64,000 bases of DNA from Candidatus Nanosyncoccus sp. (GTDB lineage Bacteria; Patescibacteriota; Saccharimonadia; Saccharimonadales; Saccharimonadaceae). A model generated the notes under the pieces. That model worked only from the letters and a program-made list of their open reading frames with translations, did no database searches and was not told the origin of the DNA. Positions 19,879 to 64,000 of the stretch are shown piece by piece. Both the position numbers and the translations under genes were made by a program. The DNA lies in assembly GCA_045640685.1 (NCBI GenBank), contig JAZUFO010000003.1, forward strand, positions 79,947 to 143,946. The letters run 5' to 3'. Position 1 is the first letter of the stretch. Every line of letters begins with the position of its first letter.

Positions 19879-19917
19879 CCCCTACAATTTCCTTCCCAAG
19901 AAACAAAAACGCACAAG

Positions 19918-19946
19918 AAAAAACCGAACATTTAGTTCGGTTTTTT
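19918..19946. terminator. Bidirectional intrinsic terminator
   Basis: AAAAAACCGAAC-ATTTA-GTTCGGTTTTTT. Confidence 0.75.
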
Positions 19947-20035
19947 CTGTAATTTATGGCGTCTATCTTATAAGTAATTTTCCTTCTTTTTATTAAGGGT
20001 TAATATTAATTTTTACTACATTGGTATTCCCTTTC

Positions 20036-20179
20036 CTACGATCTGAACAATAAGCTAAGTACGTGTTTACCAGTCTGTTGATGTCTTTTACGCTTTTCCA
20101 GTAGTTCTTTTGCCCTATCATTTATTTCATTCTTGCTCGAATCGTAACTTGATTCATTTGGATATTCTTCAAATGTCAT
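20036..20179 (-). CDS. Candidate small protein (47 aa), below the ORF-track cutoff
   Basis: Translation MTFEEYPNESSYDSSKNEINDRAKELLEKRKRHQQTGKHVLSLLFRS. AAAGGAA lies 11 nt upstream. It has its own promoter (20322-20350) and terminator (19918-19946). Confidence 0.4.
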   Translation of the reverse strand: MTFEEYPNESSYDSSKNEINDRAKELLEKRKRHQQTGKHVLSLLFRS

Positions 20180-20221
20180 TATATTTATTTTCCTTTGTCT
20201 ATCTTATATTTATTTTCCTTT
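20179..20221. repeat. 18-bp direct repeat x2 (25-bp period) at the small-ORF start
   Basis: TTATATTTATTTTCCTTT at 20179-20196 and 20204-20221. On the coding strand this is AAAGGAAAATAAATATAA, so the RBS region is duplicated. Confidence 0.8.
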
Positions 20222-20321
20222 CTCTCCGTTCCCGAATCCTCCTTTCATCTTGTCGGGTGTTTTGAGTGGTTGTTTTAATATTTTGTTTTGTTAGTTTTTA
20301 TGTTATTTGCTAACTGTCTTA

Positions 20322-20350
20322 ATACTACCACACTTATGCTATTTTGTCAA
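20322..20350 (-). promoter_or_regulatory. Promoter TTGACA-N14-TGG-TAGTAT
   Basis: rc of TGTCAA at 20345-20350 and of ATACTACCA at 20322-20330. A second TTGACA box lies about 35 bp upstream. Confidence 0.5.
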
Positions 20351-39985: not shown

Positions 39986-40591
39986 ATGACCAAAGAAATT
40001 TATAAGCAGGTCTCTTCTGAATATAAAAAAGCGCTCAGACTTGTTGAAGCCTATCTCGAGAACCTAAATGAGATGTGTGAAGAAATCGACTCTGTCGAAA
40101 CACGAATCAAGACTCATGAAAGTCTCGAAGAAAAGTGTACCAGAAAAGGCGTCAATTCAGACGATATTAAGGAAGTCAAAAACAACATCCGCGATATCGC
40201 AGGAGCCAGAATCAATGTACAGTTCAAGGACAACGTTCCTAGAATCGTAGAATTGATTAGGAACAATATCCAAGGTATTGCCATCATGGAGGAAAAGGAT
40301 TATTTCAATAATCCAAAAAAGAACGGCTATTCAAGCTATCACTTGATAGTTAGCGTTCAGTTCAACCTCCTCGGCAAAGGCACCATTCTGGTACCAATCG
40401 AGATTCAGGTGCGAACAATGGCTCAAAACATCTGGGCAACGGCGGAACATGTTATCCGCTACAAATCCATGAATACCGAAAATGATCCAATCATTGATGA
40501 AGGGTTCATGAAAATCGCTCAATACCTAAACGAGATAGACGCAGAACTTATGCGTCTAAGAGACCACAAAAACAACAAACCCGCCGAATAA
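39986..40591 (+). CDS. Small alarmone synthetase (RelQ/RelP-type GTP pyrophosphokinase)
   Basis: Single RelA/SpoT synthetase domain: RIKTHESLEEK, IAGARINV, GYSSYHLIV, EIQVRTMAQNIWATAEH. Confidence 0.85.
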   Translation: MTKEIYKQVSSEYKKALRLVEAYLENLNEMCEEIDSVETRIKTHESLEEKCTRKGVNSDDIKEVKNNIRDIAGARINVQFKDNVPRIVELIRNNIQGIAIMEEKDYFNNPKKNGYSSYHLIVSVQFNLLGKGTILVPIEIQVRTMAQNIWATAEHVIRYKSMNTENDPIIDEGFMKIAQYLNEIDAELMRLRDHKNNKPAE

Positions 40592-40606
40592 GGCGGGTTT
40601 TTCCTT
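40578..40606 (+). terminator. Intrinsic terminator overlapping the stop codon
   Basis: AACCCGCC-GAATAA-GGCGGGTT followed by TTT. Confidence 0.7.
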
Positions 40607-40730
40607 TTCAAAAAATACTTGCTTTTTTAAAAAACTTATGCTTAAATAAAAACAGAGTAAGAGTTTTAGGTCAAACACAAAAATTTAAAAACAATATAAA
40701 AAGTTTTTAAAACAAAAGGTCATACAGAAA

Positions 40731-43127
40731 ATGCAAAACAAAAAAAGTTTTTTTGCACTAAGACGCAATTCCATACTGCACCGAACGGGTATATTCTCAT
40801 CTTTTTCCCTTCTGCTGCTTTTTACGTTCATGCTATTCCCTATTACTCATTCAAACGATCAGGCAGAAGCCACCATTAGTGAAGATTATGGCCTCGAAGT
40901 AATCGCATCGAAAAGAATAGAAAGCAGTCTCAAACCAACTTCAGAAGAAACATTATCAGTAATTAAGGACACCATTTCTGTCACGTCTGGATCGCGCATA
41001 GGATATAAATTCTATATCGCCTCAGAAACTCCAGATATGCTCCTAGAAAATGATGAGACCTCTGAAAGCAGGATTTATTCAACAGAATCAAATTTTGATG
41101 CACCAGCACCACTTTTGGTTTCCGAAGAAAAATCAGCCAAATGGGGTTTCGCCATTGCGGGATACACAGGTTTTGACAAAAACTATACCACAACCAATAG
41201 CAATCTTAAATTTGCCGCAGTACCAACAACTGAAAATCTCCAGTTAATCCACTCCGCTTCCGGGCAGGTCGCAAATGATAATATCGACATTTATTATGGC
41301 ATCATCGCAAACGACAAAACCATTTCCGGCACATACACAACCACAATCTATTACTATGTCGTTACCGACATGACAAACCAGGAAGAGCCAGAAATCATCA
41401 TCGAAAACTCACAATATACTGAAGGTTATGAAAATGCCATTATCTCGGCCCAAACAAGTTTTTATGCAGATCTAGATATTACGGAAGCAGCTGTCAAAAT
41501 AGGCGATCTTGATTGTTTAGATATTAACATTACACAACAAAAACCAACCTCTATAACCTGCTCCCTTCCAAAAGGGATCCAGGCAGGCGAATACGATCTC
41601 AGTATTACATTTAAAACGATCGCAGATGGAGTAACCTGGGCAGCCACAAAAGAAAATGCAATCAGAATAAAAATCCAACCACGCCCAATCGCAATTCAAA
41701 CAAACGACAATCATCTCGATATTTTATTTAACGACACCGAATATAGAATCGACGACAATTTTACATACGTCCTAAACAATAACGAAATAACATCACAAAT
41801 ATCTGCAATTTACACTTTTTCAGATAAAACTTCATCTCCTTGGGCACATAATACCGATATAGAAACAGTCTCCATAGAAGAAAGCTTCAAGCAATTCAAA
41901 CCAACAAGTCTCAACAGTTGGTTCCACGAAAACAAAAACGTTTCACTTATCACTGGACTTGAAAACATTGACACTTCAAATGTCACCACAATGGCTAACA
42001 CATTCTCGCAAACTGGATACGATTCCCCTTCCCTAACATTATCCGGACTAGACAATTGGGACACCTCAAATGTCACAAGTATGTCATCGCTCTTCTTCGA
42101 AACGGGGCGAAATTCAACCTCATGGGATATCGGAGATTTAAGCGCATGGAATGTTGGTAACGTTACAAACTTTTACGGCATGTTCTTTGATTCAGGCAAA
42201 AATGCATTGGAATGGAATGTTGGTAACCTAGATAATTGGGACACAAAAAACGCCACAATTATGTTTTTAATGTATTACGGTGCTGGTAGTGAATCACAAA
42301 CCTGGAATACCGGACATCTAGACAACTGGAATACCTCAAAGGTGACAGACATGACTAGTATGTTTCGCTTAGCAGCACGCCATGCATCATCATTCGATAT
42401 TGGCGATATTGGCAAATGGGATATTGGAAATGTTACATCAATTAATGCAATGTTTTACGGTTCTGGTACATATGCCGGAGTGTGGCAAATCGGCGACTTA
42501 AGTAACTGGAATGTTAGTAACATAACCAGTATGAATAGTGTATTCGCCATGAGCGGAAATAACGTCTCAACATGGAATATTGGCGACCTGAGTAAATGGG
42601 ATATGTCAAACATAACAGATCTTGGCGCAATGTTCTACATGTCAGGAACGCACGCAAACACGTTTAATATTGGCGACATTGGCAAATGGAACGTTTCCAA
42701 TGTAAAATCTCTTGCAGCTACCTTTATGTATTCTGGGCGAACTGCTACAGAATGGTATATTGGAGATTTGTCATCATGGGACGTCTCAAACGTTGTGCAA
42801 ATGGAAAACGCATTTTACGAGGCAGGCGAATTTTCACAAAATTGGGACATCGGGAATCTAGATAACTGGAATACCTCAAAAGTAACAGACATGTCTGGTA
42901 TGTTCCGCTCAGCAGGAGGTTTTTCAACATTATCATGGAATATTGGCGATATTTCCGGATGGGATACGTCAAATGTTACAAGCATGAACGATATGTTTAA
43001 AGAAGCAGGTCACTTCATCAATCACTCACAAGATCTTTCCGGATGGAATGTCGACAATGTAACAAAACATGTCGATTTCAATGCTTCAACAGAATCACAA
43101 ATCATCCCACCAATCTGGAAGCAATAA
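40731..43127 (+). CDS. BspA-type (DUF285-like) leucine-rich-repeat surface protein
   Basis: Signal anchor. The N-terminal beta-rich domain is related to ORF 43534-44070. About 13 repeats of the NWDTSNVTxMxxMF type follow. Confidence 0.8.
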   Translation: MQNKKSFFALRRNSILHRTGIFSSFSLLLLFTFMLFPITHSNDQAEATISEDYGLEVIASKRIESSLKPTSEETLSVIKDTISVTSGSRIGYKFYIASETPDMLLENDETSESRIYSTESNFDAPAPLLVSEEKSAKWGFAIAGYTGFDKNYTTTNSNLKFAAVPTTENLQLIHSASGQVANDNIDIYYGIIANDKTISGTYTTTIYYYVVTDMTNQEEPEIIIENSQYTEGYENAIISAQTSFYADLDITEAAVKIGDLDCLDINITQQKPTSITCSLPKGIQAGEYDLSITFKTIADGVTWAATKENAIRIKIQPRPIAIQTNDNHLDILFNDTEYRIDDNFTYVLNNNEITSQISAIYTFSDKTSSPWAHNTDIETVSIEESFKQFKPTSLNSWFHENKNVSLITGLENIDTSNVTTMANTFSQTGYDSPSLTLSGLDNWDTSNVTSMSSLFFETGRNSTSWDIGDLSAWNVGNVTNFYGMFFDSGKNALEWNVGNLDNWDTKNATIMFLMYYGAGSESQTWNTGHLDNWNTSKVTDMTSMFRLAARHASSFDIGDIGKWDIGNVTSINAMFYGSGTYAGVWQIGDLSNWNVSNITSMNSVFAMSGNNVSTWNIGDLSKWDMSNITDLGAMFYMSGTHANTFNIGDIGKWNVSNVKSLAATFMYSGRTATEWYIGDLSSWDVSNVVQMENAFYEAGEFSQNWDIGNLDNWNTSKVTDMSGMFRSAGGFSTLSWNIGDISGWDTSNVTSMNDMFKEAGHFINHSQDLSGWNVDNVTKHVDFNASTESQIIPPIWKQ

Positions 43128-54482: not shown

Positions 54483-54532
54483 ATAAAAACGTCCTTTTCG
54501 GACGAATCGTACTTTTCAATGGAGGGTTATAT

Positions 54533-54976
54533 ATGGCAAAGACAAAACTTAGGACCAAGAGGACAACCAGAAGAACAGAGATGCAAATTAGTCACCTCGA
54601 GCAAGTTCAGGATTTCTTGGACACAGAGTATGCAGAAGCTGAAGAAATGTCAGAAGAAGTTACAGCAGACGCGGCGCTCTTAGAAGATGCTAAAATTGCC
54701 AATAAAACGGCCATGACGGAGCTCAGAAGCAATCGTCACCGCAAGCACTCGTCATCGCTCAAGGATCAGCAGAAAGCTTCAAGAGCTAAAAAGGCCTTAA
54801 AGGAAAAGAAGGGCTACGAAACAATCACCACAAAGAAAGGTGAACGTAAAACCTTCAACCAGAAAACAGAATACAAAGGTAAGAAGGTAGCATTCGATCG
54901 CAACGCAAATCGTAAGGAAACAAAAGATGAAATTGCGAAAATCGAAGTAGGCGGACTTAAACCGGAATTCTGCTAG
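54533..54976 (+). CDS. Highly basic/charged protein (147 aa), function unknown
   Basis: Good RBS, K/R/E-rich, no recognisable motif. Confidence 0.5.
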   Translation: MAKTKLRTKRTTRRTEMQISHLEQVQDFLDTEYAEAEEMSEEVTADAALLEDAKIANKTAMTELRSNRHRKHSSSLKDQQKASRAKKALKEKKGYETITTKKGERKTFNQKTEYKGKKVAFDRNANRKETKDEIAKIEVGGLKPEFC

Positions 54977-54993
54977 TAAAAATTAAATAACCC

Positions 54994-55028
54994 AAAAAAT
55001 TAGGCGAAACATTGTTTCGCCTTTTTTC
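54994..55028. terminator. Bidirectional terminator
   Basis: AGGCGAAAC-ATT-GTTTCGCCT flanked by A6 and T6. Confidence 0.75.
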
Positions 55029-55037
55029 TTTCAACTC

Positions 55038-55112
55038 TGGTGCGGGTATGGAGAGTCGAACTCCAATCTCATCCTTGGGAAGGATACATAATAGCCGTTA
55101 TACGATACCCGC
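55038..55112 (-). tRNA. tRNA-Gly (anticodon CCC), CCA encoded
   Basis: rc reads GCGGGTA..TATCC-TTCCCAA-GGATG..GGAGTTCGACTCTCC..TACCCGC-A-CCA. Confidence 0.85.
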
Positions 55113-55128
55113 TCGCATTCGTATTATA

Positions 55129-56136
55129 TCATACCTCTTCGAGCGTAATGTATTCTTTAATTCCCTCTTCGTTTTTAACACGTTCAAAGCGTTCATCGAA
55201 CTTCTTGAACGGAACAAATAATGAGACAAAATTAACCTCTGTTGCAGTTTTGTTTACAAGCTTAACGAAGTAATAACCATCGCCATTGATCGATACAAAA
55301 CGTCCGCTCTGCTCACCAACTTCAAGCTTTGTCGCCTCCGTCGCGCGTCCACCATCAATATTCTTATTATTAACAAGCCCGCCAGTCTCCTCGTAGTTCA
55401 CTTTTTCACCAAGTTGCTCTGCAACCTTTCTAAAATCACCGCCGTTTTCGCCCAAGATTTTTTCAATCTCTTTTGCAGTCGCATTAGCTTCATCATCCAT
55501 CGCCATCATCACACGTGCCTTAACTAAATTCAAATACAACATTCTTTCATATTCACCCTTAGATAAACCAAAGTTATCTCTCAAAACTTTCAAAAAGCCC
55601 TCTTCGTTTCGATCCACGCCACCAATTTGACGATGACGATCAAATTCGCTTGCAATTTCATCTTTAGAAACCTCAACATTGTATTCTTTTGCAAGTTTCA
55701 AGGCAAAAGCATTCTCCTCAGCATTAGAAAGTGCAGTACGTTTATATTTGTTCTTAACGTATTCACGATCACTTTCATTTCCGAGACTATCGGTCTTCTC
55801 TTCAGTAGACAAAATACTACTGCGATAAAGTAACAAATAATCCGAAAAACGCACATCTTGCCCATCAACATTAGCAACAGAAACCGGCAAGAATGAAGTT
55901 ACGCGATACAAAATTTCATCAGTCATTTGGAACTTATAAAGCGCCAACCAACCGCCAATCATCAAGAGGGTAAAAGCCACAAAAGCAATCAAAACAGTAT
56001 TAACAACAATGCGGCGTTTAGTGTATTGAAGAGGATATTTAAATTTGCGTCCTTGTGCGAGAACTTCCTCGCGGCGCTCCTCCACCTTTTCAAGATCAGT
56101 TTTCTTTTCGTCCTTCTTAGACTTCAATAGTTTCAT
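55129..56136 (-). CDS. Membrane-anchored SurA/PrsA-like foldase (parvulin-like C-terminal domain)
   Basis: N-terminal TM, a SurA-N-like helical region, then GGDFRKVAEQLGE...GGLV...GDGYYFVKL. Confidence 0.5.
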   Translation of the reverse strand: MKLLKSKKDEKKTDLEKVEERREEVLAQGRKFKYPLQYTKRRIVVNTVLIAFVAFTLLMIGGWLALYKFQMTDEILYRVTSFLPVSVANVDGQDVRFSDYLLLYRSSILSTEEKTDSLGNESDREYVKNKYKRTALSNAEENAFALKLAKEYNVEVSKDEIASEFDRHRQIGGVDRNEEGFLKVLRDNFGLSKGEYERMLYLNLVKARVMMAMDDEANATAKEIEKILGENGGDFRKVAEQLGEKVNYEETGGLVNNKNIDGGRATEATKLEVGEQSGRFVSINGDGYYFVKLVNKTATEVNFVSLFVPFKKFDERFERVKNEEGIKEYITLEEV

Positions 56137-56151
56137 GTTATAATTATAACA
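56136..56151. promoter_or_regulatory. 16-bp perfect palindrome TGTTATAATTATAACA giving overlapping extended -10 elements on both strands
   Basis: The plus-strand element (56136-56144) faces tRNA-Arg. The minus-strand element (56143-56151) lies 6 nt from ATG 56136. Confidence 0.5.
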
Positions 56152-56169
56152 TACATATTACATAACATT

Positions 56170-56245
56170 GGCCTGGTAGCTCAATGGATAGAGCAATTCC
56201 GTCCTAAGGAAGAGGTTGTGAGTTCGACTCTCACCCGGGTCACCA
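56170..56245 (+). tRNA. tRNA-Arg (anticodon CCU), CCA encoded
   Basis: GGCCTGG-TA-GCTC-AATGGATA-GAGC, anticodon loop GTCCTAA, T arm GTGAG-TTCGACT-CTCAC, CCGGGTC-A-CCA (two G-U pairs in the acceptor stem). Confidence 0.8.
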
Positions 56246-56268
56246 AATAATAAAGTGGTGGCAATAAA

Positions 56269-57522
56269 TTGAGAAAAAAGCAAAAAACAAGCGAAATAAG
56301 TGTTCATAAATTTGCATTTCTTTCTGCATGTTTTATTTTCTGTATCACCATCCTGCTTAGCATAGGTTATGCCGTTTTTACTGAATCTCTCGAAATCACA
56401 GGAGAAGCAACAGTGCGAGCGGAATCACCTATCCGATTCATTGAAAATTCCCTTAGTTCTCTCAATAACGGTGGCATCGAAAAAGCCACGTCGAAATACA
56501 CAGTAGACACTATAACTCATCACATCGACTTGCCAAATTGCGATTCAACCGCATCCTATAACGTCGTGATAAAAAACAACAACAATTTTCCAATCGCTAT
56601 CAAATCTCTCAACAAAGAAAGTTGGAACAATCCGAATATCGATTTTGAAATCATCGGATACAACCTCAATCAACAAACAATCGCTCCAAACAGTACAGTT
56701 CCCTTCGAGATTAAATTCAGCAATTCACTCTGCGGAAGCGAAACCACAAAACTTGATTCAATTCTTAAATTTGAATTAATAGAAGTATTAGAAGTTAACT
56801 ATTCAGACACACTGGCACTATTTTCAACCGGAAACAACCCAGGAACAGTTCTAGATGGCAATACTATCACCGCAACTTTTTCTGGCCTCGATGATTCTCT
56901 AATTGCAGCAAAAATCAACAACACTGAACTTGTTAGCGGAATGACTTACAACAACATTAACGGCGAACCTTCACTATTTACAGTTGAAAACGGCGTAGCA
57001 ACCCTAACAAACGTCCACAATGATGTTATGCTTTTTGCAAAGCTAAAAGAAGAAGCCACAACAAACAGCGAAATAGGAATTAAAATCGAATGGGTTAAAG
57101 AGGACGAGGTTATCGTCTCGCTTAATGGCACAACAACAAAAGAAGCCTACATAAGAGTTTCAGAAGACGATCTAAAAATTGGCAAAACCGCCGCAGAGCT
57201 TTACGATGCCAAATACGCCAACAACGCATTTAAAACCGGCCAAGAAGTATACATTTCATTCGAACCAATCAATGGACACGCAACACTAACACAAGCCTTC
57301 ACAATCAAACTGCGCAATACCACAAAGAGCTGTTCCGCCCTCTCAACCGCTGAGCTTATCGACCAGCATGCAAAAAAGAATTTCGACATCAATGAGCCAG
57401 CAATTAATACCGGCGTACTAACCGCCAACGCCGCAAGATACGTCAGCGTTTACTCGGCTGCAGGCAACACATTCGAAGATTTCAAATTCAAAATTAAATT
57501 CGGTCTAACGAGTGATTTGTAA
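56269..57522 (+). CDS. Signal-anchored secreted protein, function unknown (TTG start)
   Basis: N-terminal TM FAFLSACFIFCITILLSIGYAVF followed by beta-rich sequence. Confidence 0.55.
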   Translation: MRKKQKTSEISVHKFAFLSACFIFCITILLSIGYAVFTESLEITGEATVRAESPIRFIENSLSSLNNGGIEKATSKYTVDTITHHIDLPNCDSTASYNVVIKNNNNFPIAIKSLNKESWNNPNIDFEIIGYNLNQQTIAPNSTVPFEIKFSNSLCGSETTKLDSILKFELIEVLEVNYSDTLALFSTGNNPGTVLDGNTITATFSGLDDSLIAAKINNTELVSGMTYNNINGEPSLFTVENGVATLTNVHNDVMLFAKLKEEATTNSEIGIKIEWVKEDEVIVSLNGTTTKEAYIRVSEDDLKIGKTAAELYDAKYANNAFKTGQEVYISFEPINGHATLTQAFTIKLRNTTKSCSALSTAELIDQHAKKNFDINEPAINTGVLTANAARYVSVYSAAGNTFEDFKFKIKFGLTSDL

Positions 57523-57550
57523 AAAATGTGTTCTATATTAAAATAAAAAT

Positions 57551-58072
57551 ATGAACCAAGAAATAGAACTCGAACTCACATTTTTAGCAAAAGAAATACC
57601 AGCAGAAATTAAAGACACAAACCCGATTCAAGTTAAAGACATTTATATCCCGGACATTCCAGAACATTCGCATCTTCGTTTACGTAAAAAAGGTAACAAA
57701 TACGAAATCACCAAAAAACATCCAGCAGCAGAAGATGACGTTTCCATACAAATAGAAAATACCATCCCCCTCACAGAAGACGAATACAATGTACTCTCAA
57801 CTGTTAGCAACAAAAGCGTAACCAAAAATCGTTATTCAGTTCCCTACAGCAACGCAAAAATGGAAGTAGATGTTTTTACAGAAAAACTATCTGGTCTCGT
57901 TCTTATCGATTTCGAATTCAAAACCGTTGAAGAAAAAAATAATTTCGTCGTTCCAGATTTTGCTTTAGTCGAAGTAACTCCAGAAGAATTTGTTGCTGGC
58001 GGCATGTTAGCCGGCAAAAGCTATGAAGATATCGAAGACGAGCTAAAACGTTTCGACTACAAAAAGTTATAA
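57551..58072 (+). CDS. CYTH-domain (triphosphate tunnel metalloenzyme) protein
   Basis: N-terminal ExExK-type IELELTFL and LRLRKKGNKYEITKK. Confidence 0.6.
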   Translation: MNQEIELELTFLAKEIPAEIKDTNPIQVKDIYIPDIPEHSHLRLRKKGNKYEITKKHPAAEDDVSIQIENTIPLTEDEYNVLSTVSNKSVTKNRYSVPYSNAKMEVDVFTEKLSGLVLIDFEFKTVEEKNNFVVPDFALVEVTPEEFVAGGMLAGKSYEDIEDELKRFDYKKL

Positions 58073-58080
58073 AAACTACA

Positions 58081-58111
58081 AAAAATAGCTCAGAACACCT
58101 GAGCTATTTTT
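58081..58111 (+). terminator. Intrinsic terminator after the CYTH gene
   Basis: AATAGCTCAG-AACAC-CTGAGCTATT followed by TTT. Confidence 0.75.
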
Positions 58112-58173
58112 AAATCACTATCTCCTAAAATGAATCCCACAAACAAAATAGCAGCACAAAGCTACTATTTTAT

Positions 58174-58828
58174 AAAAAAAAGACTCCCCGATTTTGCGTA
58201 TAATCAAATGCGCAAAACCGGGGATATAAATTACTAATCAATATCTAGAATACAAGGCCACCAAAGCTTAATTTCTCAAACCCTAATGTTTCGACCAAAA
58301 TCCTGAAACTTCAAGCAACACTTTTCCTAAAATTATCTCAAGTTGAGTCTAATTCTAAAATCCATATTTACTTAGCAAAACAACGAGTCTCCTACTACTG
58401 CGTAAAGAACAGTAATAAAACATGTCACCCAGCCGAAGCCAAATCAATTCTCCAAGAAACATCCGCTATTCAAGGATTCCCCAAATAGTTTCCTTTCCTC
58501 TTCAAAAGGCAGCATTCCCAAATACTATTTCACGATTCAAACAGGCCTTTACTTCCTATTTAAAAACATAAAACAACATTTGTTTCAGTACACAAAAGAA
58601 TCTTTTTCCTCTGTGCCATCACTAGAACATCCCGCTATCCGGTTCCAAAACCGACATATCACCTATCTATTTCCCTCACCCGAACGGATCATGACCCCGC
58701 CGAACTACTCAGACCATAAAGTCGTTAACTCTATGATACAAAACAGAAACATCAATAAATGACTTCCTTCAAACGTTAGTAATTTAAATGTCCTATAGAA
58801 CTTTGAAGTATTACCTCTCATGTCCTAC
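58174..58828 (-). ncRNA. Candidate ~650-nt noncoding (or small-peptide) RNA of unknown family
   Basis: Has its own promoter (58835-58863) and a strong terminator (58186-58223 plus U8). No ORF of 60 aa or more on this strand. G+U-rich, C-poor RNA with several local hairpins and internal near-repeats. Confidence 0.5.
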
Positions 58829-58834
58829 ACCTCC

Positions 58835-58863
58835 ACAATATCATAGCATAAGCATAATGTCAA
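58835..58863 (-). promoter_or_regulatory. Promoter TTGACA-N14-TGA-TATTGT (overlapping alternative TGCTATGAT at 58840-58848)
   Basis: rc of TGTCAA at 58858-58863 and of ACAATATCA at 58835-58843. Confidence 0.55.
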
Positions 58864-58874
58864 TACATAAAATG

Positions 58875-58902
58875 AAAAAACCACCAGATTTTGGTGGTTT
58901 TT
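58875..58902. terminator. Bidirectional terminator after ORF 58932-59516
   Basis: AAAAAACCACCA-GATT-TTGGTGGTTTTT. Confidence 0.75.
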
Positions 58903-58931
58903 AAATTTTGCCTTATTCAGTTTTCAGAGTA

Positions 58932-59516
58932 TTATCCCGAAGTGTTGCAAAATCGCAAGACTGTATTATCCCAAAGTGTTGCAAAATCACAACCCTTTGT
59001 TTCGTCAACGCAAATATTAAGGACGTATTCAGTCGCCGTCTGGTTAATACTAAACCTTCCGTCGACCAATGTACCAACCGATACTTTAATCATGCCATCA
59101 TATTGATAGCTAGTATCAAAGATTTCATCGACGAGACAGATATGAAAATATCTCGCCTTGTTACGCGCAACGATCTTTGGCATAGAGCCCGCCGAGAATG
59201 TCGCTGGATAATAATCAGGATCCTTGAACCAACGGTTAATATCAAAATCCTGCTTAGTTCCAAAAGCAAACTCAAAGCCGTTCTTGTCTGGCTTATCAAC
59301 CCATTCGCTGACAACCACGATCCAATCATTTTTAAGATCGCTCAACATCGGTATGCTTTCGTAAACTCTATGCATAATTCTAACATCCTTGTTCTTATAT
59401 GCATTGAGATATAAAGCATCGCTACGTATGTCCTCTGCGGAGAACGGTAATGCACTTTCATCCTGCAACTCATAATTCTGAGCGCACTTTGTTGAATAAA
59501 TATAAGGTACTTGCAT
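58932..59516 (-). CDS. Orphan cytoplasmic protein (194 aa), no recognisable family
   Basis: ATG 59516 has a GGAGG RBS. The gene has its own promoter and terminator. Confidence 0.6.
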   Translation of the reverse strand: MQVPYIYSTKCAQNYELQDESALPFSAEDIRSDALYLNAYKNKDVRIMHRVYESIPMLSDLKNDWIVVVSEWVDKPDKNGFEFAFGTKQDFDINRWFKDPDYYPATFSAGSMPKIVARNKARYFHICLVDEIFDTSYQYDGMIKVSVGTLVDGRFSINQTATEYVLNICVDETKGCDFATLWDNTVLRFCNTSG

Positions 59517-59562
59517 TTTTCCTCCTTCTAACAAAAAACAAAATTTTTAATGTGCTTCCAAT

Positions 59563-59571
59563 ATTATATCA
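59563..59571 (-). promoter_or_regulatory. Extended -10 (TGATATAAT) for ORF 58932-59516
   Basis: rc of ATTATATCA. Confidence 0.5.
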
Positions 59572-59602
59572 TAAAACAGCTAAAAATTCCACATTCCTCC
59601 CC

Positions 59603-59638
59603 AATAAAATAATCCCAACCATAACGATTGGGATTATT
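59603..59638 (-). terminator. Intrinsic terminator after ndk
   Basis: 11-bp stem AATAATCCCAA / TTGGGATTATT. Confidence 0.65.
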
Positions 59639-59658
59639 GAATAACTTTTTTATCCTAA

Positions 59659-60174
59659 TTAACGAGTATATTTTTCGTTAAGATCAGAGTAATCGTAAAG
59701 CTCGTTTTCATTGAACCAAAGATTGATTTCTTGGTTTGCTTCTTCGATAGAGCCAGAAGCGTGGACCAAGTTAGGAACACCAGTTCCCTTTGCATCTGAA
59801 TAACCAAAGCTCATGTGTGAGAAATCACCACGGATGGTACCCATTTCTGCAGATTTTGGTTCGGTTGGGCCAACGATCTTACGAACGAGTGGTTGTGCTT
59901 CAACACCTTCAAGAACCATAGCAATAACTGGACCAGTCATCATGTATTCAACGTTGTAACGGAAAGCTTGTTCACCACGGCGAGTAATCATTTTACCAAT
60001 ATCTTCATAGTGTTTGCGGTAAAGTGCCTCGTTTGGCATAACCATCTTCATACCAACAATCTTAAGACCAACACGTTCAAAGCGTTGAACGACTTCGCCA
60101 ATAATACCGCGTTGAACCGTATCAGGTTTCAAAACGACAAGCGTACGTTGGATATAATCTTTTGTAGTAGCCAT
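59659..60174 (-). CDS. ndk: Nucleoside diphosphate kinase
   Basis: RTLVVLKPD, GPVIAMVLEG, NLVHASGS (active-site His). Confidence 0.9.
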   Translation of the reverse strand: MATTKDYIQRTLVVLKPDTVQRGIIGEVVQRFERVGLKIVGMKMVMPNEALYRKHYEDIGKMITRRGEQAFRYNVEYMMTGPVIAMVLEGVEAQPLVRKIVGPTEPKSAEMGTIRGDFSHMSFGYSDAKGTGVPNLVHASGSIEEANQEINLWFNENELYDYSDLNEKYTR

Positions 60175-60196
60175 CTATTCTCCTTTATTTTTTCAC

Positions 60197-60205
60197 ATTA
60201 TAACA
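60197..60205 (-). promoter_or_regulatory. Extended -10 (TGTTATAAT) for ndk
   Basis: Followed by an AAGGAG RBS. Confidence 0.5.
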
Positions 60206-60277
60206 TACAAACAATCAATAAAAAACGACTAGCATTTTAAAGATAACCAAGCCTCCCCCATATATACATTATCCTTA

Positions 60278-60286
60278 TGCTATAAT
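60278..60286 (+). promoter_or_regulatory. Extended -10 (TGCTATAAT) 6 nt from ATG 60293 (leaderless layout)
   Basis: Read directly from the sequence. Confidence 0.5.
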
Positions 60287-60292
60287 AACGAT

Positions 60293-61225
60293 ATGTATGT
60301 TTCCGAACTAGTCGAAGATTTTCTAGAGCATCTCGAAATCGAATCCGGTCGTTCCAAAAAAACGATCGAAAATTACCGACTCTATCTTTATCGTTTCGTC
60401 GAAATCACAACGGAAATTTTAGACAGAGATTTAAAGCCAAGTGATATTAATCTCGAACTCTTACGTAAATATCGCCTAAAACTCAATCGCTACGAATCGC
60501 CACAAAATGAAAACCTTGCTGTCATCACACAGTCATATCACCTTATCGCGCTTCGTGGTTTTCTGAAATATCTTGCTCGTCGCGAAATAAAATCTCTCGA
60601 CCCTTCCCTCATCGATCTCCCGCATGTCATTCGAAAACAAGTTACGTTTTTGCATTTTGATGAAGTCGAGGACATGCTAAACGAAATCGATCTTTCAACC
60701 GAATCAGGTCTTCGCGATCGTGCGATTATCGAACTGTTATATTCTGGCGGCCTCCGCGTTTCCGAACTCATCAATCTAAATCGCGATTCGATCAATCTAG
60801 AACGCCGCGAATTTATGGTGCGTGGTAAAGGTGGCAAAGATCGCCCAATCTTTATTTCAGAATCAGCCGCCGACCGCGTCGCCGAATATCTTGGCGAACG
60901 CAACGATTCCCTCCCAGCATTATTTCTAAACAACAGCAAAAACCTTCAATCCGTAGACACATCAGGCAATTACCGCCGCCTAACACCGCGTTCCGTCGAA
61001 AGAATTGTTCAAAAATACGCCCGTCTCGCCGGCATCACAAAACACGTCAGTCCACATACCCTAAGACATTCCTTCGCAACGGATCTCCTCATGAATGGCG
61101 CAGATCTACGCTCCGTTCAGTCACTACTTGGCCACGCCGACGTTTCAACCACTCAAATCTACACCCACGTCACAGACCAACACCTCAAAGAGGTCCACGA
61201 CAGATTCCATTCCGAAACAAACTAA
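60293..61225 (+). CDS. xerC: Tyrosine site-specific recombinase XerC/XerD family
   Basis: R..HTLRHSFAT..LLGH..Y catalytic signature and an N-terminal SAM-like domain. Confidence 0.85.
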   Translation: MYVSELVEDFLEHLEIESGRSKKTIENYRLYLYRFVEITTEILDRDLKPSDINLELLRKYRLKLNRYESPQNENLAVITQSYHLIALRGFLKYLARREIKSLDPSLIDLPHVIRKQVTFLHFDEVEDMLNEIDLSTESGLRDRAIIELLYSGGLRVSELINLNRDSINLERREFMVRGKGGKDRPIFISESAADRVAEYLGERNDSLPALFLNNSKNLQSVDTSGNYRRLTPRSVERIVQKYARLAGITKHVSPHTLRHSFATDLLMNGADLRSVQSLLGHADVSTTQIYTHVTDQHLKEVHDRFHSETN

Positions 61226-61253
61226 AAAAACACCTCCGAAGAGGTGTTTTTTT
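61224..61253. terminator. Bidirectional terminator
   Basis: AAAAAAACACCTC-CGAA-GAGGTGTTTTTTT. Confidence 0.75.
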
Positions 61254-62088
61254 AACTATCACCACTAGCGTCTGGGTTATAAAGGCGAATAACGGTTGAA
61301 GTTTGTGTCGGAGTTTCACTATCATTTGCATGCCAACAAGAGCGAATATAAAAATCGTAATATTTCCCTTCCGAATCTTTCACAGCAATTACATAAATGC
61401 CATCAGCAGATTGCAAATTCTGGTATGTATTAGTAAACACACCCTCATCTTCGTTCAAATATTTATCATCATTATCCGTAAACATTAAACGAGGGTAAAG
61501 AGTTGTTGGCTGGAATGCAATCGTCGAATATTGACCAGATTCATCCTTAACCGCCTTAAAGCCATTCTTTCTATAGTCATCAGCCCAGTAAACAACTTTA
61601 TCAACAGGAATTTTTTCCACTACTGTCAAATGCCCCATATCATCATAAGGAACCTTTTCAACAAACAAATTACGATAATTCAAGATAAAACCCTTATCCC
61701 AAATTTCAGCTACGCCATACGTATCGTCAGATTCATACATTTTTTCACAAGACTCAGGACGAAAATTCTGACTTCTATCTACAAATTCCGTCTTTTGATT
61801 AAAGTCACTTAAATCATAAGCTTTTTTAGCTATTTCCGTCCAAACATCGGCATAAATTTGTTGTTGCGCTGAATAATAACGCTCGGCCTCATAAGCAGAC
61901 TGGATAAAACGAAGCGCCTCAGCTTGCGAATCGATTTCAGAGCGAGTCATAGTAAGCTCAAGATCTTGCTGAATCCTTTTCGTGCCACGGTTCATAAGAC
62001 TAAGCGAGCTCATCACAACCATAGAAAAAATACCGACAGCAAACATAACTTCAACAAGTGTGTCGCCAGTAAATCTCCTAATCTTCAT
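61252..62088 (-). CDS. Type IV pilus minor pilin / pseudopilin-like protein
   Basis: N-terminal RRFTGDTLVEVMFAVGIFSMVVMS is prepilin-like: a Gly, then Glu at +5, then a hydrophobic helix. Confidence 0.55.
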   Translation of the reverse strand: MKIRRFTGDTLVEVMFAVGIFSMVVMSSLSLMNRGTKRIQQDLELTMTRSEIDSQAEALRFIQSAYEAERYYSAQQQIYADVWTEIAKKAYDLSDFNQKTEFVDRSQNFRPESCEKMYESDDTYGVAEIWDKGFILNYRNLFVEKVPYDDMGHLTVVEKIPVDKVVYWADDYRKNGFKAVKDESGQYSTIAFQPTTLYPRLMFTDNDDKYLNEDEGVFTNTYQNLQSADGIYVIAVKDSEGKYYDFYIRSCWHANDSETPTQTSTVIRLYNPDASGDS

Positions 62089-62111
62089 GCTTATATTTTA
62101 CCATAACAATT

Positions 62112-62897
62112 TTAATAAAGTAAGCCATTTAAAAACTCGGCAAACGTATAAACAATCACAAAAGCGCAAGCAAGAAACGGACCAAAATAAATTTTCACAC
62201 CCCTCTTCCCTTTTGTCATTGGTAACATCACCAACGTGCCCAAGAAATTGGCGATAAACAAAACGAAAAGCGAAAGCCAAGGATTTCCAACCACAACCCC
62301 AATCATAATTCCAAGCAACCAGTCACCATCACCAACCCATTTTCCGCCAGAAACAAAATACAAAACCAAATACAAAATTCCCAACACGCCCATTCCGCCA
62401 ATGCCATTCCAAAAAACTAACAAATCAAAATTAGAAACAAAGAGACGAACAGCAAAAACCCCAGCAGCAAGCACTAGTCCAATCCAAATCATAAATCCCG
62501 GAAGCTCACCCCACTTACCATCATAAATTGCCAAAAAACCAAGAACAATCGTGAGTAAAACAACAAGGCCATTAATTGCCCATTCATACCAAGTTGCATT
62601 AAAATTAACCGTCGTAGCAATTCCTAAAAATGCTGCACCCATTAAAATTTCAGCCAAAATCTCGGCACAACCAATTTTTTTCTTACAATAGCGACATTTT
62701 CCACGCAAAAAAATCCACGAAAAAATCGGAATATTATCAAACCATTCCAAACGTTTTTTGCACGACAAACAAACAGACCATTTACCCAAACTTTTCTTTT
62801 TCTCTGTTTTATATCTCAGTCTCCAAGCCTGACACGCCAAAAAGGAACCCATCACGGCACCCAAGATAAACATCAACACATAAAACGCTATTCTCAT
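62112..62897 (-). CDS. pilD: Prepilin peptidase (A24 family)
   Basis: CLSCKKRLEWFDNIPIFSWIFLRGKCRYCKKKI plus a polytopic C-terminal domain. Confidence 0.85.
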   Translation of the reverse strand: MRIAFYVLMFILGAVMGSFLACQAWRLRYKTEKKKSLGKWSVCLSCKKRLEWFDNIPIFSWIFLRGKCRYCKKKIGCAEILAEILMGAAFLGIATTVNFNATWYEWAINGLVVLLTIVLGFLAIYDGKWGELPGFMIWIGLVLAAGVFAVRLFVSNFDLLVFWNGIGGMGVLGILYLVLYFVSGGKWVGDGDWLLGIMIGVVVGNPWLSLFVLFIANFLGTLVMLPMTKGKRGVKIYFGPFLACAFVIVYTFAEFLNGLLY

Positions 62898-62986
62898 TTC
62901 TTATATATTACCATAAACATCTTGCATTCAAGAGATTTTTAGTATATATTTAAACCAGTAAAAGCTATTTTTATGAAAGGATAATA

Positions 62987-63568
62987 ATGGTTAAAAATAA
63001 TACAAACTCTAAAAAAGGCTTCACCATCATCGAAGTTGTCCTCGTTCTTGCTATCGCAGGTCTTATCTTCCTTATGGTCTTCATCGCCCTTCCAGCAATG
63101 CAAGCATCACAACGCGACACGCAACGCCGTAATGATCTTTCAATGTTTGCATCACAATTAACCCAATATTCAGCAAACAACCGTGGTAAAGTTCCATCAA
63201 CAGCAGACAAGGGTGCTGAAGGCGCACAAAAAGCATGGTCAAAATTTGTTTCAGACTACCTAGCAAAAGTTGAATATAAAACCGAAAACAACGAGTTAGG
63301 TGCACCAATATTCGAAATTGAAGGAAATAACTTCGTAGATCCAGATGGTGAACCATATACTGTCCTTTACGAAGGTCCAGTCGCAAAATCAGAGACCGGC
63401 GACGATGCAATTACATTAGCATATGATTTCTCAGGAAATCAACATACTATTCACGTCTACTCATATGCAGAATGTAACGGCGAAGAAATTGTCAGATCAA
63501 CTGGTCAACGTAAAGTTGCCTTCCAATACAAACTCGAAGGTGCAGGTGTTTACTGCGGACACAACTAA
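62987..63568 (+). CDS. pilA: Type IV pilin (major pilin-like)
   Basis: KKGFTIIEVVLVLAIAGLIFL class III signal; C-terminal Cys pair. Confidence 0.8.
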   Translation: MVKNNTNSKKGFTIIEVVLVLAIAGLIFLMVFIALPAMQASQRDTQRRNDLSMFASQLTQYSANNRGKVPSTADKGAEGAQKAWSKFVSDYLAKVEYKTENNELGAPIFEIEGNNFVDPDGEPYTVLYEGPVAKSETGDDAITLAYDFSGNQHTIHVYSYAECNGEEIVRSTGQRKVAFQYKLEGAGVYCGHN

Positions 63569-63632
63569 TCTAAACTAGTATAAAAATAGCTACAAAAAAA
63601 ATCCTCCCAGACGGGAGGATTTTTATATCTAA

Positions 63633-63848
63633 CTATTCCTCTTCTTCGTCGTCACCCCAAAGGCTTAAAATTTCGTCCACCGTATAAATAACAGGATCAT
63701 CATCAGGAAATTCGTGATCTAAATAGTATAGATTCTCATCTTCCCTGTTTCCAATAAAGGCATAATATCCACCCTGGCCATCACTCGCGAAAGGAATATA
63801 TTGCGCAGTCTCATCATGCTTAATATCGAGAGACAAAAAACGCGCCAA
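63633..63848 (-). CDS. SMI1/KNR4 (SUKH)-like fragment, 71 aa
   Basis: GGYYAF...LYYLDHE... is typical of the C-terminal half of SUKH domains. TTG start, with an in-frame stop just upstream. Confidence 0.4.
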   Translation of the reverse strand: MARFLSLDIKHDETAQYIPFASDGQGGYYAFIGNREDENLYYLDHEFPDDDPVIYTVDEILSLWGDDEEEE

Positions 63849-63880
63849 GATTGCTCCTGACGCGTCCTAAACGATCTTTC

Positions 63881-64000
63881 TTAGATAGCGCTAACAAGTG
63901 AGTAAATTGGAAGCAAAGTACCACCAATAACGATACCAATGAGGCCCGCCATGATAACCATCAAGATCGGCTCAATCATCGTAGAAATGTTTGCAATTTC
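63881..64000 (-). CDS. pilC: Type IV pilus platform protein PilC/GspF family, C-terminal end only (runs off the window)
   Basis: rc translation is ...EIANISTMIEPILMVIMAGLIGIVIGGTLLPIYSLVSAI*. Confidence 0.65.
   Translation of the reverse strand, partial: EIANISTMIEPILMVIMAGLIGIVIGGTLLPIYSLVSAI

Follow-up and report, generated by a model that had tools for sequence, protein, structure and literature searches.

A candidate gene for a large structured noncoding RNA of an undescribed family in Saccharibacteria

The window, the whole 64,000-nucleotide stretch of Candidatus Nanosyncoccus sp. DNA analyzed here, likely carries at 58830-58174 on the minus strand the gene for a stable, structured noncoding RNA (ncRNA) of an undescribed family, predicted to have its own σ70-type promoter and intrinsic terminator. 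A preliminary description of the sequence had proposed for this site a large structured ncRNA that is transcribed on its own and belongs to no known family. This proposal is supported by homologues, aperiodic substitution, covariation, and the lack of an Rfam match. The conclusion holds because of this comparative evidence, and not because of the G+U richness, UUCG hairpin, and internal repeats to which that description had pointed.

Transcription signals and coding content

On the minus strand, 58863-58174 is delimited by a strong promoter at one end and a strong terminator at the other. The main features are as follows:

58863-58835 (−): promoter, TTGACA (58863-58858), 17-nt spacer, TGa-TATTGT (TATTGT at 58840-58835)
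58830-58174 (−): predicted RNA of ~655 nt, homologous over its full length to L071:2826-3634 and L078:5781-6590
58821-58705 (−): 38-aa open reading frame (ORF), not considered a gene
58224-58174 (−): intrinsic terminator, 14-bp stem 58224-58211 / 58198-58185, followed by GUC and U8

The TTGACA-17-TGA-TATTGT promoter was found where it had been placed initially, as was the overlapping TGCTATGAT at 58848-58840. It scores 10/12 and has an extended −10 element. Promoters with a −35 and a TG-extended −10 element number 11 in the window versus 2.1 ± 1.4 expected, about 5-fold over simulation. Since this class is enriched and lies mostly upstream of genes, the promoter at 58863-58835 is probably real. 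Judging from its position, transcription would start at ~58830-58826, and the 3′ end would fall within the U8 tract. The terminator is as strong as first described, with a stem of 14 bp where 13 bp had been given and a U8 run after GUC. The pairing probability of the stem is 0.99, and its 12-nt loop is the sole reason why the terminator scan skipped it.

In agreement with the reported absence of minus-strand ORFs of at least 60 aa, the longest such ORF between 58112 and 58931 has 38 aa. The region of the predicted RNA has no codon periodicity (p 0.8). A six-frame Pfam scan with stops masked yielded no remnant, by which a pseudogene was rejected; recoding was rejected because all three stop codons, TAG, TGA, and TAA, occur. 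The plus strand holds a stop-free stretch of 118 codons, and coding there was rejected because G accounts for only 11% on this strand and the stretch has neither a start nor periodicity.

Homologues, conservation, and gene neighborhood

Two metagenome contigs, L071 and L078, bear a collinear homologue; both come solely from an ndk-anchored metagenome scan. Each of the three copies directly follows ndk in the same orientation and shares the promoter layout (TTGCTA-17-TGa-TAATAT in L071, TTGTCA-17-TGc-TAATAT in L078) and a homologous terminator. A hidden Markov model (HMM) trained only on L071 and L078 and run on the 64-kb window has just two matches, 58659-58535 (E 2.4e-6) and 58238-58175 (E 0.011), both on the minus strand and collinear. 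The three copies share exact blocks of 12, 11, 10, 8, and 7 nt in unchanged order. The family comprises three members in two lineages, with L071 and L078 being nearly one lineage. From the contig names, the host of the RNA appears to be animal-gut-type Saccharibacteria.

Within 5 kb of ndk, the RNA is absent from the closest ndk relatives (96% identity, L027-L030 lineage, GCA_045618065.1) and from ~80 other ndk-anchored loci. This means that the RNA is either patchily distributed or encoded elsewhere in those genomes. It was likewise absent beside ndk relatives found by a search for contigs encoding ndk. Covariance model R1, used with and without filters, and profile HMMs detected no fourth member in ~100 loci or the rest of the window; weak matches in L077 and L098 correspond to the leader of a protein gene and were rejected as family members. 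A CYTH-anchored search of GTDB genomes and of contigs of CYTH relatives found synteny not kept and zero nucleotide similarity, and no relative was found for the protein of the adjoining orphan gene. An exact 22-mer from the RNA had 0 matches in metagenome and viral contigs, conserved-block patterns had 0 matches in viral contigs, and phage and plasmid BLAST returned at most a chance match of 35 nt. The window contains no second copy of the RNA and no tRNA-derived att repeats flanking an island.

The G+U-rich, C-poor composition, previously put forward in favor of helices, does not stand as an argument. The composition of the region (A.27, C.11, G.26, U.36 on the minus strand) is merely the neutral composition of that strand, given by the complement of third codon positions in adjoining plus-strand genes. 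With the terminator left out, the minimum free energy (MFE) z-score is −3.7, which lies within the genome background (20 further 603-nt segments of the minus strand, with a mean of −1.6, an sd of 1.6, and 3/20 at or below −3.5), so folding energy alone carries no weight.

Neutral composition and an unexceptional z-score, together with an orphan as neighboring gene and a slot 3′ of ndk that holds different cargo in nearly every relative, would suit DNA without a function, either the decayed remains of a gene or filler of a hypervariable slot, whose promoter and terminator stem from a gene since lost. We consider this unlikely, because conservation lies well above that of synonymous sites and stops at the terminator. 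L071 and L078 are 90% identical across ~800 nt of the RNA, compared to identities at four-fold synonymous sites of 0.70 in ndk and 0.39 in a SurA-like gene, and identity drops to 0.53 directly beyond the terminator. Invariant blocks of 10-12 nt persist at a divergence that has brought four-fold sites in the SurA-like gene close to saturation (0.41-0.43). The compensatory changes and strand-specific stems described below, as well as the lack of a detectable protein remnant, also argue against this explanation. Saccharibacteria are epibiotic, with tightly packed genomes of ~1 Mb that leave little room for non-functional DNA.

The conserved sequence lacks a coding signature. Conservation with 3-nt periodicity, which the preliminary description had associated with a protein gene, is not found among the homologues: substitutions in the RNA are spread over the codon phases as 26/30/27 (p 0.86), versus 2/0/41 and 33/19/164 in flanking genes. 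The RNA alignment contains 19 indel columns, and no ORF is common to the three copies.

The gene downstream of the RNA varies, being a convergent CYTH gene in the window and the SurA-like gene in L071 and L078. In these two contigs, the RNA sits between ndk and the SurA-like gene with one strand used throughout, which would suit a cis-acting element that either precedes the SurA-like gene as a very long leader or attenuator or extends the ndk transcript at its 3′ end. Such a role is very unlikely. In the window, the SurA-like gene is set apart from the RNA by three opposite-strand genes and a tRNA, and ndk by an orphan gene that has a terminator of its own. In L071, each unit has its own signals: ndk a terminator, the RNA a promoter and a terminator, and the SurA-like gene, as in L078, a leaderless promoter, whose TGgTATAAT abuts the ATG in L071. 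Since a strong terminator ends the RNA and the next gene differs between copies, the RNA probably regulates no neighboring gene. The slot also lies near a tRNA gene and an XerC-like recombinase, with the RNA 1-2 kb from a tRNA-Arg gene.

Secondary structure and covariation

The structural elements of the predicted RNA in the window are listed below (P, pairing probability):

58829-58823 / 58800-58794 (−): P0, 5′-terminal hairpin, found in separate predictions for each of the three RNAs
58793-58790 (−): invariant GGAC in the AUAGGAC block, pairing with GUCU 58184-58181 directly after the terminator stem
58786-58777 (−): P1 closing helix, 5′ strand UAAAUUACUA; partner 58236-58227, ~540 nt away; P 0.98
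58236-58227 (−): P1 closing helix, 3′ strand UAGUAAUUUA; inverted repeat I5
58763-58745 (−): P2 and P2b, 5′ strands GUCAUUUAU and GUUUCU; partner 58674-58658
58674-58658 (−): P2b and P2, 3′ strands GGAAAU and AUAGGUGAU
58735-58715 (−): P3 hairpin, P 0.96; basal 7 bp kept in all three
58701-58683 (−): Ha hairpin, 6 bp, invariant loop core UCAUG
58640-58631 (−): S5 long-range helix, 5′ strand GGAUAGCGGG; partner 58387-58378
58387-58378 (−): S5 long-range helix, 3′ strand CUCGUUGUUU
58623-58616 (−): S6 long-range helix, 5′ strand AGUGAUGG, within the invariant GUGAUGGC block; partner UUAUUACU 58418-58411
58421-58411 (−): invariant block GUUUUAUUACU with the S6 3′ strand, identical in all three
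58616-58590 (−): Hc hairpin of variable length, 11 bp in the window and 5 bp in L071/L078
58591-58582 (−): invariant block GUACUGAAAC
58561-58539 (−): Hd hairpin, invariant 9-nt loop AAGUAAAGR; block UAGGAAGUAAAG at 58558-58547
58283-58264 (−): S9 hairpin, 8 bp

Covarying base pairs, anticipated for homologues of a structured RNA, are borne out in L071 and L078. Across thirteen helices (100 bp, four of them long-range), 299/299 cells are paired in the three sequences and 29 compensatory double changes occur, versus 1-4 double changes and 40-48% of cells paired in slid controls; the helices were partly picked after inspecting the sequences, and the covariation rests on three sequences from two lineages. 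In the three core hairpins, all 51 cells are paired and 8 of the 17 pairs are changed on both sides; shuffles give 3.0 ± 1.4 such double changes (0/500) and slid controls 0-1. When stems preserved across the three copies were counted automatically, the sense orientation had 32, the antisense orientation 6, and column-shuffled alignments 13.5 ± 4.5. Folded separately by MFE, the window RNA and L071/L078 have in common P0, GGAC/GUCU, P1, Ha, Hd, S9, and the terminator. Projecting the whole MFE structure of one sequence onto the other gave no excess of kept pairs and ~2-fold more double changes.

At the 5′ end, the 7 bp of P0 include one double-sided and three one-sided changes, with 0 broken pairs. 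The GGAC/GUCU pairing is present in the MFE folds of all three RNAs (P 0.86-0.93) and is invariant in sequence, which puts it beyond a covariation test. P1 reads UAAAUUGCAA/UUGCAGUUUA in L071/L078 (P 0.9), with two compensatory changes, A-U to G-C and U-A to A-U. P2 and P2b together have 15 bp with 7 double-sided changes and 0 broken, the register of P2b being less certain. In P3, the apical loop is replaced in L071/L078 by a ~49-nt insertion that forms its own hairpin. Four of the 6 bp of Ha are changed on both sides, one of these between L071 and L078.

In the central part, S5 keeps 10 bp in all three sequences, with 2 double-sided and 4 one-sided changes. A different helix from the L071 MFE fold, GCCU/AGGU plus GAUAAU/AUUAUC, cannot form in the window and was rejected, so S5 is preferred. 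Nested in S5, the 8 bp of S6 are nearly invariant, and a local hairpin competes with S6 in the window's own MFE fold. Hc shares 4 basal bp among the copies, 2 of them changed on both sides, and the 7 bp of Hd have 2 double-sided changes, 0 broken, and three pair types at one position. Toward the 3′ end, S9 shows 2 double-sided and 4 one-sided changes, its loop being GAAA in the window and an inserted hairpin in L071/L078, and the terminator stem differs from that of L071/L078 by 5 compensatory double changes. The C(UUCG)G and CGGUU-UUGG-AACCG hairpins and both near-repeats pointed out earlier are present in the window, yet none is well conserved in the homologues; the second hairpin shares only 3 pairs, one of them broken in L078, and was rejected as a conserved element.

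On the comparative evidence, these elements form a closed, multi-domain fold that starts with the P0 hairpin at the extreme 5′ end. A clamp of GGAC/GUC(U) and the 10-bp P1 holds both ends of the RNA together. The 5′ domain is closed by P2/P2b and contains P3 and the UCAUG-loop hairpin, and a central domain, closed by the nested S5 and S6, contains GUGAUGGC, GUACUGAAAC, and the AAGUAAAGR-loop hairpin. The 3′ domain consists of hairpins.

The arms of P1 belong to a 14-nt inverted repeat (58224-58237 / 58776-58789). As this variable slot has a tRNA gene and an XerC-like recombinase nearby, they could be read as the terminal inverted repeats of a small non-autonomous mobile element, or the region could bind protein as DNA. 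The chance that the element acts at the DNA level is slim: it is single copy in the window with no visible target-site duplication, its location with respect to ndk is unchanged across distant genomes, its inverted repeat shows the covariation and G-U tolerance of an RNA helix, and the 32 sense versus 6 antisense stems are not expected of a DNA palindrome.

The long-range P1 also lies within the region of the 38-aa ORF, which recalls the fold-back inhibition element of hok mRNA. The preliminary description had offered a small hydrophobic-peptide mRNA as an alternative; it would consist of this ORF and a long 3′ UTR, perhaps as a hok-like type I toxin locked by 5′-3′ pairing. A GGAGG lies 8 nt upstream of the ATG and the C-terminal half of the ORF is partly hydrophobic. 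However, the GGAGG comes after the −10 element but ahead of the point where transcription is expected to begin, and hence probably lies outside the RNA, and it is not conserved in the homologues. The matching AUG in L071 opens a frame of only 10 codons, the ORF has no relative among 1.84 billion (1.84e9) representative proteins and no PADLOC or NCBIfam match, and, as noted above, substitutions are aperiodic and the three RNAs share no ORF. Like hok-type mRNAs, the RNA is highly folded, is closed by a long-range 5′-3′ helix, and has a small 5′ ORF in the window copy; unlike them, it is twice as long, its ORF is unconserved, and no antisense RNA gene is evident. We therefore give the peptide mRNA very little credence.

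Relation to known RNA families and possible role

The structured ncRNA was compared with all Rfam models, including ROOL, GOLLD, OLE, raiA, and HEARO, as had been recommended, and no family matches any of the three copies. At the gathering threshold, Rfam 15 cmscan of the whole window reported 4 tRNAs only. A permissive scan (E up to 10) gave no match to the ROOL, GOLLD, OLE, raiA, or HEARO models in the window region, L071, or L078; for the window region it returned nothing but terminator-like noise. The earlier failure to fit the sequence to RNase P, tmRNA, SRP, or 6S RNA is consistent with the covariance models, which gave no match to these RNAs, and ARAGORN found tRNAs only and no tmRNA in 54500-64000. 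By sequence comparison, the RNA appears unrelated to any of the 4227 Rfam families and would be new at the family level. The broad category of orphan large structured RNAs already has precedents; in the papers searched, we found no report of a noncoding or structured RNA of this kind in Saccharibacteria or Patescibacteria.

Two other RNA types were considered. Box C/D k-turn RNAs have C (RUGAUGA) and D (CUGA) boxes joined by a flanking canonical stem. Invariant UGAUG and CUGA boxes flank Hc, and cmscan with C/D snoRNA models on the Hc segment of L078 gave a marginal E of 0.17, far below gathering scores; on inspection, the canonical stem that should flank a k-turn cannot be drawn consistently for the window copy and L071. 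ToxIN-like RNA antitoxins of type III toxin-antitoxin systems consist of tandem ~36-nt repeats, a terminator, and then the toxin gene. No tandem array was found inside the RNA and no PADLOC match for its neighbors. A 2 × 34-nt repeat is located at 58929-58996, with no ORF after it.

OLE sits in a conserved gene neighborhood with protein partners, whereas the present RNA has no conserved partner gene other than ndk. It resembles GOLLD and OLE in being ~600-800 nt long and independently structured, with conserved unpaired blocks and a function unknown at discovery, and differs from them in that none of the three copies has a covariance-model match. ROOL (Rumen-Originating, Ornate, Large) RNAs average 581 nt, have many stems, multistem junctions, and an unknown function, and are patchily distributed, often near tRNA genes, as GOLLD RNAs also are (PMC5737381). 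With 655-810 nt, several domains, and a tRNA-Arg gene 1-2 kb away, the RNA is similar to ROOL; it differs in host phylum, absence of prophage context, and lack of Infernal similarity at E up to 10. ROOL, GOLLD, and OLE form homo-oligomers (PMC12286853).

By analogy, its probable mode of action is that of a stable RNA working in trans. Its helices would serve as a scaffold, and its invariant unpaired blocks may contact a partner, which could be a protein, an RNA, or another copy of itself; such a trans-acting scaffold would resemble the orphan large RNAs OLE, ROOL, and GOLLD. The self-complementary CAUG in the UCAUG loop could mediate kissing-loop dimerization. On balance, we lean toward viewing the family as the first large (650-810 nt), ornate ncRNA class specific to Saccharibacteria (Patescibacteria/CPR), possibly forming a higher-order RNA or RNA-protein assembly via its invariant loops.

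To our knowledge, every large bacterial RNA class of this sort has led to unexpected biochemistry. Very few bacterial ncRNAs combine a length above 500 nt with a conserved complex fold; only rRNA, group II introns, GOLLD, and ROOL are listed as comparably large and complex (PMC5737381), and the latest example of such biochemistry is RNA-only cages and oligomers (PMC12286853). The narrow, patchy distribution so far limits the generality of the family. If confirmed, the three sequences and the secondary-structure model would constitute a defined, testable target.

Limits and coding potential of the unit

The preliminary description listed a promoter, a terminator and internal motifs at 58863-58174 on the minus strand, and all of these features were found to be present. 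The element TTGACA-17-TGaTATTGT (58863-58835, minus strand) is the best promoter match of the region, and the unit ends in a 14-bp hairpin (58224-58185) with GUC and U8 behind it. It corresponds to a candidate RNA of approximately 655 nt (58830-58174), referred to here as the large RNA. Promoters with a -35 and a TG-extended -10 element occur 11 times in the window, compared to 2.1 ± 1.4 in simulations. Transcription from 58863-58835 is plausible because this promoter class is enriched and mostly precedes genes.

The longest minus-strand open reading frame (ORF) between promoter and terminator encodes 38 amino acids. The alternative that the unit is an mRNA for this peptide found no backing: no relative of the peptide turned up in a set of 1.84 billion representative proteins, it has no family match, and the GGAGG proposed as its ribosome-binding site falls after the -10 element but ahead of the predicted start of transcription. 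Codon periodicity is absent (p 0.8), compared to p < 1e-5 for every neighboring gene, including the orphan gene upstream. All three stop codon types are scattered over all frames, and a six-frame scan yielded no Pfam remnant.

The G+U-rich, C-poor makeup of the region (A.27, C.11, G.26, U.36), previously taken as support, equals the neutral composition of the minus strand, as read from the complement of third codon positions in adjacent plus-strand genes. The minimum free energy (MFE) z-score is -3.7 for the minus strand, compared to +1.1 for the plus strand; 20 other 603-nt minus-strand windows average -1.6 (SD 1.6), three of them at or below -3.5. Given this neutral composition and a z-score within the background, the sequence taken alone is not exceptional. 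The lowest background value (-6.0, 20 shuffles) belongs to 40200-40802 (minus strand); on the plus strand, this interval takes in the tail of a 201-aa gene, the first part of a 798-aa gene and the 140-nt intergenic gap that separates them.

Another unit that runs from promoter to terminator and lacks a long ORF lies at 19916-20350 (minus strand), with TTGACA-17-TGgTAGTAT (20350-20322), a 14-bp terminator (19948-19916) and an A-rich body of ~400 nt. Its sole ORF (20179-20036) encodes 47 aa, and codon periodicity is absent. Many gene starts (e.g., 60293, 50851, 44763, 54442, 26884 and 56136) carry an extended -10 TGnTATAAT 6 to 7 nt before the ATG without a Shine-Dalgarno sequence, and a GGAG- or GAGG-type motif precedes only 20 of the 58 long ORFs. 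This suggests that leaderless mRNAs are widespread in the source genome.

Homologues in a variable genomic slot

The collections searched hold no close relative of the source genome. The nearest proteins to that of CYTH, the convergent gene beyond the terminator, are 60 to 65% identical, and gene order around CYTH is not retained in relatives. The ndk gene is conserved among relatives; scanning metagenome contigs with it as an anchor returned 80 loci. An nhmmer search with the candidate region as query matched two of these, L071 (JAEEGL016002637.1) and L078 (JAEEGL016055008.1), on the same strand as ndk and ~500 nt downstream of it, where a ~1.1-kb gap without an ORF separates ndk from a SurA-like gene. 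L071:2826-3634 and L078:5781-6590 are collinear with 58830-58174 from promoter through terminator, and the exact blocks AUAGGAC, UCAUG, GUGAUGGC, GUACUGAAAC, UAGGAAGUAAAG, GUUUUAUUACU and CUUUAC occur in the same order in all three. In the reverse search, a profile derived solely from L071 and L078 recovered 58659-58535 (E 2.4e-6) and 58238-58175 (E 0.011), with no further match anywhere in the 64-kb window. Judged by these matches, the homology is real. No fourth copy was found among the loci collected (covariance model R1, profile HMMs), and the comparative evidence comprises three sequences, which represent two lineages.

The window, L071 and L078 share one promoter layout, with TTGACA, TTGCTA and TTGTCA, respectively, a 17-nt spacer, TGn, and TATTGT, TAATAT and TAATAT. 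The terminators are homologous. A reading of the unit as a cis leader is contradicted by the window, where three opposite-strand genes and a tRNA intervene between the unit and the SurA-like gene.

In relatives, the backbone consists of prepilin peptidase, XerC, ndk, a variable slot, tRNA-Arg, the SurA-like gene and ArgRS. The slot, from downstream of ndk to tRNA-Arg/SurA-like, is a hypervariable site of insertion among related Saccharibacteria (e.g., L019:8516-9037, L024:5579-5887 and L027:5510-6370). It holds the large RNA in L071 and L078; the orphan, the large RNA, CYTH and a 417-aa putative surface protein in the window (56246-59658); and small hypothetical ORFs (a 92-aa hypothetical; ~100-aa ORFs), a BrnT toxin or an ABC transporter in other relatives. 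No tRNA-derived direct repeats flank the slot. The explanation as a DNA-level mobile element is contradicted by the constant placement of the unit relative to ndk in distant genomes.

The orphan (58932-59516, minus strand; 194/200 aa) is preceded by a strong Shine-Dalgarno sequence and shows clear codon periodicity. A set of 5.8 billion protein clusters contains no relative of its protein, and Pfam, NCBIfam and PADLOC likewise yield no match; the opposite strand carries an overlapping ORF of 168 aa. At its 3' end, a 34-nt direct repeat occurs in two tandem copies (58929-58996, 88% identical), each bearing a promoter-like TTGYGA-16-GATAAT, followed by a terminator (58902-58876). Together, these elements could produce a 55- to 90-nt small RNA just upstream of the large-RNA promoter. 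On the plus strand, the 417-aa and CYTH genes (56269-58072) show a very strong strand-specific compositional bias, with only 5 to 7% G at third codon positions.

Selection and conserved structure

The L071 and L078 RNAs are 90% identical over ~800 nt, compared to 0.70 (ndk) and 0.39 (SurA-like) at four-fold synonymous sites of the flanking genes. Identity reaches 0.87 to 0.96 in the 5' and 3' thirds and 0.72 to 0.81 in the center, and drops to 0.53 directly past the terminator. An origin as decayed DNA is contradicted. The 83 substitutions are distributed 26/30/27 by phase (p 0.86), alongside 19 indel columns, in contrast to the flanking genes ndk (2/0/41) and SurA-like (33/19/164). These comparisons indicate that selection acts on the RNA, not on a protein. 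The AUG of the 38-aa frame opens a 10-codon frame in L071, and 51- to 55-aa ORFs near the 3' ends of L071 and L078 shift frame between the two. The explanation as a peptide or type I toxin mRNA is contradicted by the lack of an ORF shared by all three, the aperiodic substitutions and the peptide without relatives. In L071, the segment that separates the RNA promoter from the ndk terminator (2640-2790) contains a repeated CCTGTGG(G)AAAA motif and G-rich runs, and is 76 to 83% identical to its L078 counterpart.

Helices, hairpins and other elements of the large RNA (window coordinates, all minus strand)
58829-58794: P0
58793-58790 with 58184-58181: GGAC/GUCU clamp
58786-58777 with 58236-58227: P1
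58763-58745 with 58674-58658: P2 and P2b, enclosing P3 and Ha
58735-58715: P3
58701-58683: Ha, loop UCAUG
58640-58631 with 58387-58378: S5
58623-58616 with 58418-58411: S6
58616-58590: Hc
58591-58582: GUACUGAAAC block
58561-58539: Hd, loop AAGUAAAGG
from Hd to the 3' strand of S6: variable center
58283-58264: S9
58224-58174: terminator

Hc, GUACUGAAAC, Hd and the variable center all lie inside S5 and S6. When the window RNA and L071/L078 are folded separately, the MFE structures concur on a 5' hairpin, GGAC/GUCU around the terminator, P1, Ha, Hd, S9 and the terminator. P1, a 10- to 11-bp helix, connects the 5' region with the stretch that immediately precedes the terminator; between lineages, its pairs change from A-U to G-C and from U-A to A-U. 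In a MAFFT core alignment (A2), pairing holds in 51/51 cells of three core hairpins (17 bp), with eight pairs changed on both sides, compared to 3.0 ± 1.4 after shuffling (0/500) and 0 to 1 with the partner slid; RNAalifold independently recovers two of them. Position by position, thirteen helices (100 bp), partly chosen after inspection of the sequences, show pairing in 299/299 cells and include 29 double changes; sliding by 1 to 3 nt leaves 40 to 48% of cells paired and 1 to 4 double changes. Because of this choice, an automatic count on an anchor-based alignment was added, which took every stem of 6 bp or longer that all three sequences retain. This yielded 32 stems and 25 to 26 double changes, compared to 13.5 ± 4.5 and 7.2 ± 3.9 in column shuffles, and six stems on the antisense strand. 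Projecting the whole MFE structure of one sequence onto the other gives no overall excess of kept pairs, as expected if about half of a 650- to 800-nt MFE prediction is wrong; double changes are in ~2-fold excess. The predicted structure model is partial. P3, Hc and S9 vary in length between lineages and keep their hairpin bases, which is typical of structured RNAs.

Relation to known RNA families and possible function

The comparisons show a conserved noncoding unit with conserved promoter, terminator and helices. None of the three copies has a match in Rfam 15 at E values up to 10. The closest likeness is to ROOL and GOLLD in size, multidomain fold, unknown function, patchy occurrence and a nearby tRNA gene (PMC5737381), but the large RNA is a member of neither. 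ROOL and GOLLD assemble into RNA-only oligomers (PMC12286853). The invariant UGAUG...CUGA around Hc resembles the box C/D k-turn signature, but model matches are marginal and the flanking stem is inconsistent. We infer that the large RNA probably acts in trans as a stable RNA, in which P0, the clamp and P1 would protect the ends and the invariant unpaired blocks would contact a partner.
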